Part shown: positions 1-5,816 of the stretch, piece after piece
Numbering within the stretch: the first letter of the stretch is position 1
Layout: each line of letters starts with the position of its first letter
Source: a virus
Lineage: Duplodnaviria; Heunggongvirae; Uroviricota; Caudoviricetes
IMG/VR virus record: IMGVR_UViG_2706794697_000003
Strand: one strand, 5' to 3'
Length of the DNA: 5,816 nt
Position numbers and translations under genes: made by a program
Notes under the pieces: generated by a model
Seen by the model: the letters and a program-made list of their open reading frames with translations, nothing else
Told to the model about the DNA's origin: nothing
Database searches by the model: none

Positions 1-14
1 TGTCCAATGTGCAT

Positions 15-48
15 AAAAAAATCCGGAAACAAGTGAGCGTTTCCGGAT
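15..48 (-). terminator. Rho-independent terminator downstream of the portal gene
   Basis: Perfect 10-bp inverted repeat atccggaaac (21-30) / gtttccggat (39-48) with an 8-nt loop. On the plus strand it is preceded by an A-run (15-20), so on the minus strand the hairpin is followed by a U-tract. It lies 33 nt after the portal stop codon (82-84). Confidence 0.7.
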
Positions 49-81
49 TCTTACACAGCCACTGGATCGGTCAACTGATCC

Positions 82-1329
82 TTAACTGATCGGCATTACA
101 CCACCGGGACGCGGATTCATATCTTCCAGGTCGCGGCAGTCATTGGAAGAGTAAATTCCCCAGTTGATCCCGGTGGCGTAGGCTTCAAAACGGGACTTCA
201 TATCCCCGCGCAGTAACGCCCCGGCGTTAAATTTGGCGTAATAAACGCCCTGCTTACTTTTTCGTACCAGTCCGGTGTTGATCCGCTGTTCGATGCGGGT
301 CAGATACGGCACCAGTGAATAGTTGATAAATCCCAGCCCCAGCTCTTCGATATTGTTGAAGGTGGCGCGATCGGTGTTCTGCACCATGTGCAACGGCACC
401 CGGAACAGACGACAGATTTCTTCCAGCTGAAACTTGCGGGTTTCCAGGAACTGACTGTCCTCGGCGTTCAGCGCCATCGACTTCCAGTCCAGCCCCATTT
501 CCAGAATCATCGGGCGGTGAGCATTGCCAAGCCCCGTGTGACACTCCTCAAAATCTTTCTTCAGACGCTCGTAAGCATCCGGCGTGAGCTTTTGTTCCGT
601 ACGCAACACACCGGATGTCACCGCACCATTACTAAACAACCTGGCACCGTGCTCCTCGGTTGCCGCTGCCAGTGAAATGGCCTCACGCGCATACGCAATG
701 GGATTCAGCCCGACAAGTCCATCCAGCGTCAGGGTGCGCACATGCCAGATTTCATTCTGGGTCAACACATCCACGGAACCATCCGGAAACGTCACCTGAT
801 AAACCGGCTGCCACTGGCTGTTCAGCTTCGGTTCCACACAGCCCGGATCTATCGGAAGAAGCTCCACCACTTCTCCCAGTGCCTTTACCTTGTAGGCGTA
901 AAAATTCCCCCGTAGACACAGGCAGACAATAACCAGCTCCCAGAATTCCTGCGGTGTCATGTAGCCATTAGGTTTTGCCGAAACCAACTTATGCAGTCGT
1001 TCATCCACCGCCCGTGTTTTCAGGGTACCGCTGATTTTGTAGAGACTGCAGGGCAGCATACCAACAGACTCTGCCAGCACCCTGACGCAAGAATAGACCG
1101 CCGTCAGGCGCATGGCCCGCTGGCTACTGATCCGCTTTCCGGTATAGGTGTCGTATGACAGCCCGATAGCATCAGCAGTTCTGCTGGCGTGGTCACCGGC
1201 ACATCGCTTTTTCGTTGAAATAATCCCGAAAAGAACACTATTTACCTCCGCCGACAGACTGCCGTGTACGGTCGAGATATCGCGCCACCAGCCACGACCA
1301 GAACAGGCACAGCGCCCCGGCAACAACAA
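82..1329 (-). CDS. Phage portal protein (HK97-family-like); start codon uncertain
   Basis: Long minus-strand ORF directly downstream of the terminase large subunit. The segment [23 protein letters not shown] resembles, from memory, the conserved N-terminal region of HK97-type portals. The ORF-track start at 1329 is a TTG with no clear ribosome-binding site and overlaps the 1238-1420 ORF by 92 nt. The first in-frame ATG is at 1113, which would cut off the conserved motif. The true start therefore probably lies between 1113 and 1329 and may be non-canonical. Confidence 0.75.
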
Positions 1330-1420
1330 AACCCGCCGGGGGATAAATCAGCCAGGCACCATACGCCAGCAAAAGCGCACCCAGCACGCCCACCAGAGGC
1401 GCGAGAATCAGCATGATCAT
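1238..1420 (-). CDS. Small hydrophobic protein (60 aa, two predicted transmembrane helices), hypothetical
   Basis: ATG at 1420 with GAGGT 6-7 nt upstream, 11 nt after the terL stop. Codon usage is E. coli-like (CTG, GCG, GTG rich). The product has two hydrophobic stretches and a charged C-terminus ([14 protein letters not shown]). The overlapping portal-frame translation over the same bases looks like out-of-frame junk (rich in C, W, R). Confidence 0.45.
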
Positions 1421-1431
1421 AATTACCTCAG

Positions 1432-3165
1432 TTAAAGCGAGCGGATCCCGTAGGACTCAATGTGGTCAGACAGCGTGTCTTCTTTCTCGTACAGCATGGC
1501 TCTGCCAACCGCCATAATCAGCGCAACTGCACCATCGATTTTGTTTTCCGCCTGCTCTTTGACGGGTTTCACCACATCATCGTTACCCGGCATGTTTTTG
1601 CCGACCACGTTGCCGATACACCAGGTCATGATGGGATTGCCGTCATGATGAAAACGTCCCGATTCAATCGCTGCTTCCAGCTCTTTCATCGGATCGGACA
1701 TATTGGTGAAGTTCTGGACGATAGTGACGGGATTCAGGTCTTCATCAGCAAGGTCATGTGACAACCCGGTCGCCCCGAAGGGGTCGATGGGTGACTCACT
1801 GACCGGGCTGATTTTGTTCGCCGCTTTGGCCTCCTCGAGGATGTAGCGATAATCCACCTCCGCACCATCGGTAACGGTCAGAACGCCCATTTCCACCCAT
1901 TTCTGAAAGCGTTCGGCTGTCCGTCGATCTTCATTTTTCTCGACGCTGTACACCGTGTCATACGGTACCCAGAAACGCGGGGCCACACTGTAGTAATGCG
2001 TTTTACCGTCAATCTCGCGGGTATAAAGTCGCGCCATGCTGTTCATATCCAGCTTACGCGCCAGGTCAAAGGCCAGAATGCACGGCTGCCCCTCGAACTG
2101 CTCAAGGGTCAGTGATTTATCCTCGCAGCTCTGCCAGCTCACCAAGTTGAAATACGCCGAACGCGCCGACACCCAGATATTGAGGTGTTTTGTTTTAAAG
2201 ACGTTTGCCAGACGGGCGTTATTTTTCGCACGCTGCTGCTGACTTAACAAAAATTCGCGATAAACCGACACGCCAATATTTGGATTGGCTTTTTCCAGCA
2301 CCTGCGGGCCGGTCCAGTCGTCACCTTCATCAACGGTATAGATGATCCCGAACAGTTCATCGTTAGGCACCGAGCCGTTGAGCATCTCGATGACTTCCCG
2401 CCGCTTGTCGTAGCACGGCCCCTCAATGTTGTACCCGGCGGTGGTGATGGCCCACATCAGTGGCTGACGTCGCGCCCCCATCCCGGTAAGCATTGTGGTA
2501 TAAAGCGCATCGGTGGCATGCTCGTGATATTCATCAACCACGGCACAGTGGGGTGATGAACCATCACCTGGGTTGCCGATCAGCGGTTCAAACCGCGCGC
2601 CATCCTCCGGACGGTTCATGTTTGAGGCGTTAACCTCAATCCCGAACGCTTCCGTCAGCATGGGTGTGCGTTTACACATCAGTCGCGCCGGGCGAAAGAC
2701 TTCCCACGCCTGTTTCTCTGTCGTGGCACCGGAATACACTTCCGCGCCAAACTCGTTATCACAGGCAAAACAATACAGGGCAACACCGGCAGAGATTGCT
2801 GATTTGCCGTTCTTACGGGGGATTTCGGTGTACACCTCCCGGAAGCGGCGCAACCGGGTGCCTTTATTGACCCAGCCAAACGCACAGCAGATCACAAATA
2901 GCTGCCACGGCTCCAGCGTGATGGGCATCCGTTTGAATGCCCACTCCCCCTTGGTGTGCGGCAACAGCTGAATAAATTTCGCGGCCCGTTCAGCCAGGTC
3001 CTTGTCGAAGCGGTAACGAAACGACTTACTTTTTTCCGCCATCAGGTCATCAAGATGGCGCTGGCAGGCCTGAATCACAAACTGGCAGGCAACAATCTTT
3101 CCGCGCACGACATCCCGGGCATACTGATTTGCAGCATTTACGTTGGGGTAAGATTTCCGGCTCAT
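1432..3165 (-). CDS. terL: Phage terminase large subunit (HK97-like ATPase plus nuclease)
   Basis: 577-aa ORF with a Walker A-like motif PRKNGKS and a Walker B-like motif AVVDEYHE in the N-terminal half, and a C-terminal acidic-residue region consistent with an RNaseH-like nuclease. Its start overlaps the terS stop as ATGA (3162-3165), indicating translational coupling. Confidence 0.9.
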
Positions 3166-3656
3166 GATTCGATAATTTTCAGAAACGGGTTAGTGGCTTT
3201 CTTCTGCCCCGCCAGGCCAATCAGACGCTGGCGGCTGCTGGGGTCGAGTCCGAGCATTGCCCCCGTGCTGCTCATCTCGGACTCCTGTTCTTTTTTGGCG
3301 GTCAGCTCCGGATTTTTGACCCTGCCGCCCATTGCACCGGTGATGGTGTTGCCCTGTATGGCAATATTTTTCACGGCACGTCGCCAGAACTCATAGGCCA
3401 CGCACCACCGCTCAAGTACCGCCAGGTCAGTCACGCACAGCAGGCCCTGACCGCAGAGTTCTTTGGTTGTCAGTTGCCACATGATCGTGGCGAGAGGGAG
3501 ATCTTCTTCAGCGAACCACTCTGGTGGCTCAACACCTTTGATGGGCGTAAAAACAGGTTCATCTTTGTTCAGGGCTCGCTTGCCGGGGTTTCCGGCCAGC
3601 GCCTTGCGCGCCGTTGGCTTGGGGCGACGCCCGGAACGCCCCGCCGTTCCAGCCAT
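3162..3656 (-). CDS. terS: Phage terminase small subunit (P27-family-like)
   Basis: ORF immediately upstream of terL and coupled to it. N-terminus [30 protein letters not shown] is basic, as expected for a DNA-binding small terminase. I place the start at ATG 3656 because AGGAG lies 8 nt upstream. The ORF-track GTG at 3665 sits inside that ribosome-binding site. Confidence 0.8.
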
Positions 3657-3695
3657 ATGCGGCACTCCTGGTTAAATTTCATTTTTCGCGGGTAT

Positions 3696-3755
3696 AAAAA
3701 AACGATGGGGCGGGCAGTCCGGAAGACGTCAGGTCACAGGGATTTGCCCCGCCCC
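3696..3755 (-). other. GC-rich hairpin in the HNH-terS intergenic region; candidate cos region and/or attenuating terminator
   Basis: 8-bp G/C stem ggggcggg (3707-3714) / cccgcccc (3748-3755) around a 33-nt loop that contains a GACGTC palindrome. On the minus strand it is followed by AUCG and then a U7 tract (plus-strand A-run 3696-3702). HK97-type phages place cos between the HNH gene and terS; that is established knowledge, not something the sequence proves here. Confidence 0.3.
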
Positions 3756-3777
3756 TCCCTACAAGTGAGAATAATTA

Positions 3778-4128
3778 TCACCGGATTCGTTCGCGCGCTG
3801 TTTTCGCTTTATGGCAGGGCCAGCACAGACTCTGCAGGTTGCTGTCTGCGTCTGTTCCGCCATGCGCTTTCGGGATGATGTGGTCGACGGTTTTCGCCTC
3901 GCTCACCACACCGACACGCAGACACAACTGACACAGACCTTTATCGCGCTTCAGAATACGGGCACGAATCACCGTCCATTTTGAGCCATAGCCACGCTGG
4001 TGGCGGCTCAGTCCGCGCTGGTGCTGCACCCAGCCTTCACCGCGATGTTTATCGCAGTAACCCGAACTGTCTGTGGTTGTACCTGCACATCCACGCTTAC
4101 GGCAGGCACGTGGGATTAGTGATGGCAT
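3778..4128 (-). CDS. HNH endonuclease (phage packaging-associated)
   Basis: 116-aa ORF with GAGGT 5 nt upstream of its ATG. It has cysteine pairs and the motif DHIIPKAHGGTDADSNLQSLCWPCH, typical of HNH/zinc-finger nucleases. Its position immediately upstream of terS is typical of HK97-like cos phages. Confidence 0.85.
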   Translation of the reverse strand: MPSLIPRACRKRGCAGTTTDSSGYCDKHRGEGWVQHQRGLSRHQRGYGSKWTVIRARILKRDKGLCQLCLRVGVVSEAKTVDHIIPKAHGGTDADSNLQSLCWPCHKAKTARERIR

Positions 4129-4170
4129 AAATACCTCATACCCTGCGAAATGTTTACCACGATAAAAAGG

Positions 4171-4429
4171 CTACTTAATGCACTGAGTGCGGATATACTC
4201 CTGTGCCCCTTCCAGTTGCATCTGCATCGTCATCAGCCGCTCTCTGAGGGTGAAATAATCCCGTTCAGCGGTGTCTGCCAGTCGGGGGCTGGTTGCATTA
4301 TCCACGCCGGAGGCGGTGGTGGCTTCACGCACTGACTGACAGACTGCTTTGATGTGCAACCGACGACGACCAGCGGCAACATCAGCGCGCAGAGTTTCAT
4401 TTTCAGCTTTCGCATCAGCTAACTCCTTC
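4171..4429 (-). CDS. Rz: Rz i-spanin, C-terminal part only (5' end lost in the N-run)
   Basis: Translation KELADAKAENETLRADVAAGRRRLHIKAVCQSVREATTASGVDNATSPRLADTAERDYFTLRERLMTMQMQLEGAQEYIRTQCIK closely matches the C-terminal two-thirds of lambda Rz as I recall it. It carries Rz1 embedded in another frame. The ORF track joins it to the endolysin only because the N-run translates as X. Confidence 0.85.
4233..4415 (-). CDS. Rz1: Rz1 o-spanin (outer-membrane lipoprotein), embedded in Rz
   Basis: 60-aa ORF MRKLKMKLCALMLPLVVVGCTSKQ... with a lipobox (LVVVGC) and a proline-rich stretch (PPPPP). AAGGAG lies 8 nt upstream of the ATG. It sits entirely inside Rz in a different frame, as in lambda. Confidence 0.85.
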   Translation of the reverse strand: MRKLKMKLCALMLPLVVVGCTSKQSVSQCVKPPPPPAWIMQPAPDWQTPLNGIISPSESG

Positions 4430-4679
4430 NNNNNNNNNNNNNNNNNNNNNNNNNNNNNNNNNNNNNNNNNNNNNNNNNNNNNNNNNNNNNNNNNNNNNNN
4501 NNNNNNNNNNNNNNNNNNNNNNNNNNNNNNNNNNNNNNNNNNNNNNNNNNNNNNNNNNNNNNNNNNNNNNNNNNNNNNNNNNNNNNNNNNNNNNNNNNNN
4601 NNNNNNNNNNNNNNNNNNNNNNNNNNNNNNNNNNNNNNNNNNNNNNNNNNNNNNNNNNNNNNNNNNNNNNNNNNNNNNN
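4430..4679. other. 250-nt run of N (assembly gap or masked sequence)
   Basis: Uninterrupted n characters. It covers the 3' end of the endolysin gene and the 5' end of Rz. Confidence 1.
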
Positions 4680-4965
4680 CCGGTATATCGACTTTGATGT
4701 ACGGGTTAATTTGTCTGGCGACAGTGGCAAGGTCTTTATTCAGGAGGGCTTTGCATTCTGCTTCGGTATACGTTTTACCGAGCATGATGTCTTTTCCGGT
4801 GTGTCCGTGACATACAGTCCATACACCAATGATATCTTTGTATGGTATGTAGCTGACACCTTCCAGACCATCGTTACCACCTGGGCCAGTGATTAACACA
4901 GATGCTATAGCAACAGCCCCACCACCAATAGCAGCTGCAACAGCCTTGCGTAATGATGGCGACAT
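4680..4965 (-). CDS. R: SAR endolysin (phage-21 R-like lysozyme), N-terminal 95 aa only (3' end lost in the N-run)
   Basis: N-terminus [30 protein letters not shown] is a Gly/Ala-rich signal-anchor-release segment. It is followed by [25 protein letters not shown], the catalytic region of T4-lysozyme-like muramidases. Its ATG (4965-4963) overlaps the holin stop as TAATG. Confidence 0.85.
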
Positions 4966-5180
4966 TATTCACCTCTCGCAGCCTTACGCTTGTCTTCTCT
5001 TATTTTGAAATACAGATTTGTCAGATAAGTCAGAAGCCCCAGAAGCAGACTTCCCAGCACACCAATCGCAGCCCACTGTGATGGACTGACCTGATCCAAC
5101 CACTGCAAAAACCAGTAGCCGGCACTGCCGGCGGAGGTGCCGTAGGCAATGCCTGTTGATATTTTTTCCATCTGATACAT
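4965..5180 (-). CDS. S: Holin (phage-21 S-like pinholin), two possible starts M1 and M4
   Basis: 71-aa [74 protein letters not shown] with two transmembrane segments and a charged C-terminus. ATG codons at 5180 and 5171 match the dual-start arrangement of lambdoid holins. It is translationally coupled to the endolysin. Confidence 0.9.
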
Positions 5181-5355: not shown

Positions 5356-5422
5356 ACCCGCCAGCAATCTGAGTAGCGAAAGCTGTTCATCCCCAATGTT
5401 TTTGCTGGCGGGTCCTTTTTTC
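5356..5422 (+). terminator. Plus-strand terminator-like structure (12-bp stem, large loop, T-tract)
   Basis: Perfect 12-bp inverted repeat acccgccagcaa (5356-5367) / ttgctggcgggt (5402-5413) followed by CCTTTTTTCT. The 34-nt loop contains a small AGC-GAAA-GCT hairpin. The T-tract follows only on the plus strand. Confidence 0.4.
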
Positions 5423-5724
5423 TACGGTCCTCCTCCCCGGAGGGGGGCATTTCATTATTTTTCTAATCGTTACTGGTGAGAAGGCGGAAGAAAAAGCCAG
5501 TTCTTCGCCCCTAAATAACAGCATGATTCCAGTCCATGCAAAATCTGATTTCCAGCTCACACATACCGAGCACTGTACAAAAAACCGCCAGCCAAGGCAG
5601 TTAAGAGTGTGTTCCCGGGGTTTGCTTAGAATATTTTGTAAGTTGTCCGAAGAGATATTTACAACACCAGAATGATGCATTATCAGTCCCCTGCCAGAGG
5701 TTCACTACGTAACCTGACCGACAA

Positions 5725-5816
5725 TGAAGTGGCACACTGAATTTGGCCACCTGAACAGAGGTGATATGCTCACCTCAGAACAACACAGGTGCTCCAATGA
5801 AAAAAAGAAATTTTAG
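5725..5816 (+). mobile_element. Left end of an IS3-family insertion sequence (IS911-like), partial
   Basis: The element starts with TGAAGTGG, a TG-initiated terminal repeat typical of the IS3 family. A 7-bp stem gaggtga/tcacctc follows, then AGGTG and an ATG at 5798 encoding MKKRNF, which matches the N-terminus of IS911 OrfA as I recall it. The element runs off the window end. Confidence 0.6.
5798..5816 (+). CDS. IS3-family transposase OrfA, first 6 codons only
   Basis: ATG at 5798 with AGGTG 7 nt upstream; translation MKKRNF, then the window ends. Confidence 0.5.

Follow-up and report, generated by a model that had tools for sequence, protein, structure and literature searches.

The window, meaning here the whole 5,816-nt stretch of DNA that was analysed, carries on its minus strand the layout of a phage late operon, as read from the ORF list and Pfam matches. 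The genes upstream of the portal locus are the following.

4965-5180, minus strand: holin gene
4171-4965, minus strand: lysozyme and Rz/Rz1 genes, partly masked by Ns at 4430-4679
3778-4128, minus strand: HNH endonuclease gene
3162-3665, minus strand: small terminase gene
1432-3165, minus strand: TerL gene, intact, 577 aa, with the Pfam domains TerL_ATPase and TerL_nuclease
1238-1420, minus strand: ymfR, a gene for a 60-aa small membrane protein, with its TAG stop at 1240-1238

In the assembly collection, an exact-sequence look-up of the window's TerL protein hit 4305 index blocks, and the contigs fetched through this match were each 99.3-100% identical to the window. Positions 1-4429 were 100% identical to Shigella sonnei Ss046 (CP000038.1), whose genome is credited in PMC5447701 to Yang et al. 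2005, and to several other fetched assemblies. On the strength of this identity, we assign the window to a Shigella sonnei prophage remnant. The assemblies fetched via the identical TerL numbered 10 out of several thousand for S. sonnei and came from different projects, some as complete chromosomes and others as draft contigs; for the nine other than CP000038.1, the species was inferred from the 99.3-100% identity to the window. The order HNH - TerS - TerL - ymfR - portal is the same in the window as in phiP27, SfIV, SfII, SfI, ST64B and the e14-like (ymfR-containing) E. coli prophages, with the synteny TerL-ymfR-portal retained. Over ymfR and the portal, relatives of the phiP27/SfIV type show about 89-94% DNA identity to the window. 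Records of E. coli and of phages label the 60-aa ORF either 'protein YmfR' or 'membrane protein', and its placement relative to the portal start is the same in these relatives.

The features of the portal locus, all on the minus strand, are listed below in the direction of transcription.

1323-1329, minus strand: three TTG codons heading a spurious 415-codon ORF (82-1329); not a start site
1244-1249, minus strand: GGAGGT Shine-Dalgarno sequence within the 3' end of ymfR, 5 nt before the GTG start
1177-1238, minus strand: 5' segment of the portal in the original frame, with the GTG start (1238-1236) and codons 2-21
1176-1177, minus strand: site of a 1-nt deletion, GAGCTGGCGGA in relatives and GAACTGCTGA in the window, with one G of GG gone (CTGGCG to CTGC)
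99-1176, minus strand: body of the predicted portal pseudogene, corresponding to codons 22-380 of the 413 in the ancestral HK97-family portal
1111-1113, minus strand: ATG, internal Met43 of the intact portal and start of a 343-aa 'portal' in several public annotations
1104-1106, minus strand: premature TGA, ending the 44-codon product from the GTG (ORF 1104-1238)
1-98, minus strand: terminal 98 bp of IS4, beginning TAATGCCGATCAG on this strand, with the junction at 98/99

The preliminary description had reported that the portal frame has no canonical start, and its individual observations held when the window was rescanned. Between 1344 and 1101, the TTGs at 1329, 1326 and 1323 are the only ATG, GTG or TTG codons in the portal frame besides ATG 1113, and there is no in-frame ATG or GTG between 1238 and that ATG. 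Initiation at TTG 1329 would give a 92-nt overlap with the 60-aa ORF (1238-1420), and neither the TTGs nor the ATT at 1224, which does lie in the portal frame, have a ribosome-binding site before them. The GGAGGT at 1249-1244 is followed by a GTG at 1238-1236 outside the portal frame. The resemblance to portals does extend beyond 1113 in the upstream direction: positions 1176-1114 (minus strand) encode 21 residues matching residues 22-42 of the phiP27 and SfIV portals. The wording 'no canonical start' is nevertheless misleading, since a canonical GTG with its GGAGGT exists at 1238, which that description had noticed but dismissed as out of frame.

The portal genes of phiP27, SfIV and E. coli A36 are annotated as 1242 nt and 413 aa from the GTG homologous to 1238. 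We scanned IMG/VR with the phiP27 portal and obtained 80 loci with 88-100% protein identity, all of which hold an uninterrupted ORF of exactly 413 codons from the homologous start codon. This codon is GTG in 56 loci (context GGAGGTAAATAGTG) and ATG in 24 (context GGAGGTGAGTAATG), and GGAGGT is kept in all 80 in one or the other context. The window shares with the phiP27/SfIV-type relatives a GGAGGT-N5-GTG start that overlaps the ymfR stop, the GTG and the TAG having one base in common (TAGTG). Gene pairs with such stop/start overlaps (TAGTG, TAATG) occur in phage late operons, and the ancestral ymfR and portal would likewise have overlapped by 1 nt; the overlap, with the ribosome-binding site inside ymfR, is conserved in 80/80 relatives. 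The arrangement suggests that ymfR and portal may have been translationally coupled in the ancestor. Unlike the coupled pairs, the start in the window gives only a 44-aa peptide.

The pattern of substitution agrees with this start. In codons 1-21, five of the six codons that differ between the window and phiP27 are synonymous in the GTG frame, and over the 380 codons of the repaired window portal there are 68 synonymous and 10 nonsynonymous codon differences from phiP27. The mostly synonymous differences indicate that the portal had, until recently, been evolving as a gene coding from the GTG onward. A solved 424-aa portal (PDB 8cez) matches the phiP27 portal (E = 1.5e-53) in an alignment that begins at phiP27 residue 17; portal homology therefore reaches far ahead of Met43, which ATG 1113 encodes. 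That homologous portals might begin at the methionine of 1113 was not borne out, as it is the internal Met43 in every relative. These results identify GTG 1238-1236 as the predicted normal start of the portal gene.

The cause of the interrupted frame lies at the boundary of portal codons 21 and 22. When positions 1440-1050 were aligned with phiP27, SfIV and A36, the mean column identity was 97% and a single indel was present in 392 columns, inside CTGGCG. Translation from GTG 1238 yields 21 authentic codons and 23 out-of-frame codons before the TGA at 1106-1104, while the 359 remaining portal codons (22-380) lie in another frame, -1, from the GTG frame. Putting one G back produced a protein colinear with SfIV and phiP27 over 380 residues. 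The deletion separates the GTG from the portal body and thereby accounts for the apparently missing start, so that the start-less portal frame is the result of a 1-nt deletion rather than a chance pattern. The preliminary description had named as its own refutation that related prophages show a clean ATG or GTG with a single-base difference in the window, and exactly this was seen, both in the alignment and in 80/80 IMG/VR loci.

We then assessed the distribution of the deletion. It was present in 0/80 IMG/VR relatives. In E. coli complete genomes, a query of about 170 nt across the site gave 1345 matching records (query coverage at least 80%), and the best 25 of these 1345 matches each span one extra base; no copy with the deletion or the portal::IS4 junction was found in this collection, which excludes Shigella. 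A degenerate 29-mer scan of species-representative genome contigs did not find the deletion allele either, probably because Shigella is merged into E. coli there. In contrast to these relatives, the 50-nt stretch across the deletion, GCCGGTGACCACGCCAGCAGAACTGCTGATGCTATCGGGCTGTCATACGA, was exact in 10/10 S. sonnei assemblies fetched, including Ss046 CP000038.1 and an assembly (L008) whose identity to the window is only 99.3%. The closest intact portal relative was about 94% identical, and an intact ancestral allele of the exact prophage lineage was not found. As a separate observation, seven differences from the relatives fall within about 45 nt around the deletion (window 1160-1210): besides the deletion itself, codons 11-13 hold four substitutions, and codons 20 and 22 one each. 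All of these substitutions are synonymous except A13V, and the cluster has the look of mosaic variation inherited from phages, not of decay that followed inactivation. One assembly (L009) has a further 1-nt indel in the portal region and no ymfR call.

The portal body is also truncated at its 3' end, which the preliminary description had missed. Window positions 1-98 are a 100% match to IS4 (InsG) in the lambda::IS4 record, in which the target duplication defines the IS4 start at TAATGCC. IS4 sits after portal codon 380 (…NPRPGG), and the last 33 codons (381-413) are replaced by VMPIS and the TAA at 84-82; the junction codon V is made up of G from the portal and TA from IS4, which then supplies M-P-I-S. 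Directly after the portal junction, the S. sonnei loci carry an IS4 transposase gene (PF13006/PF01609). The insertion thus has terminal identity to IS4, an interrupted target abutting it and the transposase gene next to it, as judged at the window-side end. The truncation was present in the fetched assemblies wherever the contig reaches that far. Beyond IS4, the S. sonnei loci continue with raiA-pheL-pheA, or with another IS3-family element or further IS elements. Several assemblies have a shortened IS4 transposase gene with an IS3-family element after it, a sign that IS insertions may be nested.

The portal body retains a clear family signature. It matches Pfam Phage_portal PF04860 with 358.8 bits against a cut-off of 39.1, over profile positions 2-321 of 321, and its DNA identity to the phiP27 and SfIV portals is about 90-94%. 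A single intact 413-codon ORF is lacking, owing to the deletion and to the loss of codons 381-413 to IS4. The head-module synteny is likewise incomplete: TerL and ymfR are present upstream, but the downstream part is replaced by IS4 and the elements beyond it. The prohead protease and major capsid genes, which follow the portal in phiP27/SfIV-type relatives, are absent downstream in the S. sonnei loci. The broken 413-codon ORF makes the locus a pseudogene of the HK97 portal family, not a functional member. Compared with the phiP27/SfIV-type relatives, the window differs by the 1-nt deletion at codon 21/22, by IS4 after codon 380 and by the absence of these protease and capsid genes.

The 415-aa conceptual protein, which the preliminary description had treated as a real unit, has a separate origin. 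In phiP27, A36 and SfIV, a TGA closes the same frame downstream of the TTGs (…STKK*). In the window this TGA is CGA at 1206-1204: a T-to-C change at 1206, which is synonymous in portal codon 11 (AGT to AGC), removes the stop and leaves the frame open by accident to TTG 1329. By this comparison of frames, the 415-codon ORF from TTG 1329 is an artefact, and it illustrates that a synonymous change can accidentally open an alternative frame and create a misleading long ORF. The accidental opening of this frame explains why the public gene calls are inconsistent. Most give 343 aa from ATG 1113, upstream of which no Shine-Dalgarno-like sequence was seen (GCGGATCAGTAGCCAGCGGGCCATG), Ss046 has 414 aa from TTG 1326, and the other portal calls in the S. 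sonnei assemblies (L004-L013) are 336 aa where the contig ends, or none.

Taken together, the locus is almost certainly a frameshifted, IS4-truncated portal pseudogene in a S. sonnei prophage remnant. In an ancestral HK97-like prophage related to phiP27, SfIV and ST64B, the portal would have been initiated at GTG 1238-1236, and the S. sonnei lineage lost one G at 1177/1176. Ribosomes starting at the GTG would translate 21 authentic and 23 out-of-frame codons and halt at the TGA at 1106-1104, and neither an initiation codon nor a ribosome-binding site serves the 359 portal codons that remain in the other frame. IS4 has interrupted the gene after codon 380 as well, removing the last 33 codons, and the portal is thereby inactivated twice over. 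We infer that no functional portal would be made; reinitiation at ATG 1113 or an occasional spontaneous frameshift could give low-level translation of the downstream frame. This is an ordinary dead gene, and the kind of decay is already known. Shigella genomes are known for pseudogenisation by IS elements and by frameshifts, and the remnant resembles that pattern in being flanked and cut by IS elements, with IS4 at the left end of the window and an IS3-family element at the right end, and in having a point frameshift common to all inspected strains, with nothing unusual about it. Biologically, one more inactivation by frameshift and IS in a Shigella prophage remnant is of little weight. The practical value lies in annotation: no public call is right, and the correct entry would be a pseudogene starting at the GTG on the ymfR stop.

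Four options had been offered in the preliminary description, of which the frameshift or pseudogene stands and the non-canonical start, the overprinted pair and the sequencing error do not. A sequencing or assembly error, by which the gene would be intact in the organism and the missing G an artefact of the record, fits with the lost base being one of two adjacent Gs, as short homopolymers are occasional error sites, and with a reading frame that has no lesion other than the deletion and the IS4 cut. However, the identical deletion recurs in all 10 independent assemblies, among them Ss046 and a strain 0.7% divergent, and the same assemblies share the IS4 truncation where the contig extends far enough, which makes an error very unlikely. 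Initiation in the portal frame at a non-canonical or upstream codon (ATT 1224, CTG 1257 or TTG 1329/1326/1323), overprinting ymfR, would yield a full-length portal-like protein; the frame is indeed open from 1329 to 82, and the original Ss046 annotation begins at TTG 1326. Against this, the frame is open only through the change at 1206 and is not conserved in relatives, where the TGA falls between the TTGs and the portal body. Moreover, the residues it encodes upstream of 1176 match no portal, the GTG frame gives the conserved N-terminus, and the TTGs and ATT have no ribosome-binding site, so that we regard this possibility as scarcely credible. An overprinted ymfR/portal pair was rejected, the frame being neither open nor conserved in phiP27, A36 and SfIV. 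A non-canonical ATT or CTG start was rejected as well, since the window and all relatives have a canonical GTG or ATG with GGAGGT where the homologous N-terminus begins; ATT 1224 itself falls inside conserved GTG-frame codons.

The remaining alternatives accept the deletion and assign an expressed product to the broken gene. Programmed -1 ribosomal frameshifting near 1176 would join the GTG N-terminus to the portal body, and a shift at CTG|GCT would give exactly the ancestral protein again. Yet no slippery X XXY YYZ heptamer is present at the site (GAA CTG CTG ATG; 1185-1165), the 80 relatives and phiP27, SfIV and A36 are all single-frame with no conserved recoding signal, and the product would still be minus 33 C-terminal residues and have no capsid genes to work with; we consider such recoding extremely improbable. 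An Rfam search of the whole window at gathering thresholds found no RNA family and no known recoding or regulatory RNA element. It is decidedly unlikely that an N-terminally truncated 343-aa portal fragment is expressed from ATG 1113 and retains some role. Gene callers predict this fragment in most assemblies and it contains nearly the whole Pfam Phage_portal domain, but its start is an internal methionine in every relative and has no Shine-Dalgarno sequence, both of its termini are missing, and the partner head genes are missing from the locus. A useful fragment could be the 44-aa peptide from the RBS-GTG, which is still perfect, or the truncated portal from ATG 1113; possibly, it would be a dominant-negative subunit and poison the portal rings that superinfecting phiP27/SfIV-like phages assemble. 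Every S. sonnei assembly inspected has the lesion, and no extra stop codons occur in the remaining frame. Both the shared lesion and the stop-free frame are explained equally well by recent common ancestry, and we hold it very improbable that the broken locus has been kept because a fragment benefits the host.

Several minor observations concern the upstream part of the window. The start of the small terminase gene is ambiguous between GTG 3665 (167 aa, ORF list) and ATG 3656 (164 aa, most assemblies), and its stop overlaps the TerL start at 3165-3162. The 250 Ns at 4430-4679 mask the lysozyme gene in its 3' part and Rz in its 5' part, so that the ORF list merges the two into one 264-aa ORF containing Xs; in unmasked S. 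sonnei loci, lysozyme and Rz are separate genes of 165 and 154 aa. Within the Rz gene, another frame contains a 60-aa ORF at 4233-4415 (minus strand) whose signal (…LPLVVVGC) resembles that of a lipoprotein. Nesting of Rz1 inside Rz in another frame is the usual arrangement. Upstream of the holin gene, a 97-aa ORF at 5387-5680 (minus strand) was predicted as a gene in one assembly, and no Pfam hit is recorded for it. The left end of an IS3-family element occupies the plus strand from about 5712/5726 to 5816, with an orfA-like start, ATGAAAAAAAGAAATTTTAG, at 5797. Ss046 carries unrelated sequence at this place, which indicates that the window comes from a different S. sonnei strain with an extra IS upstream of the lysis cassette.
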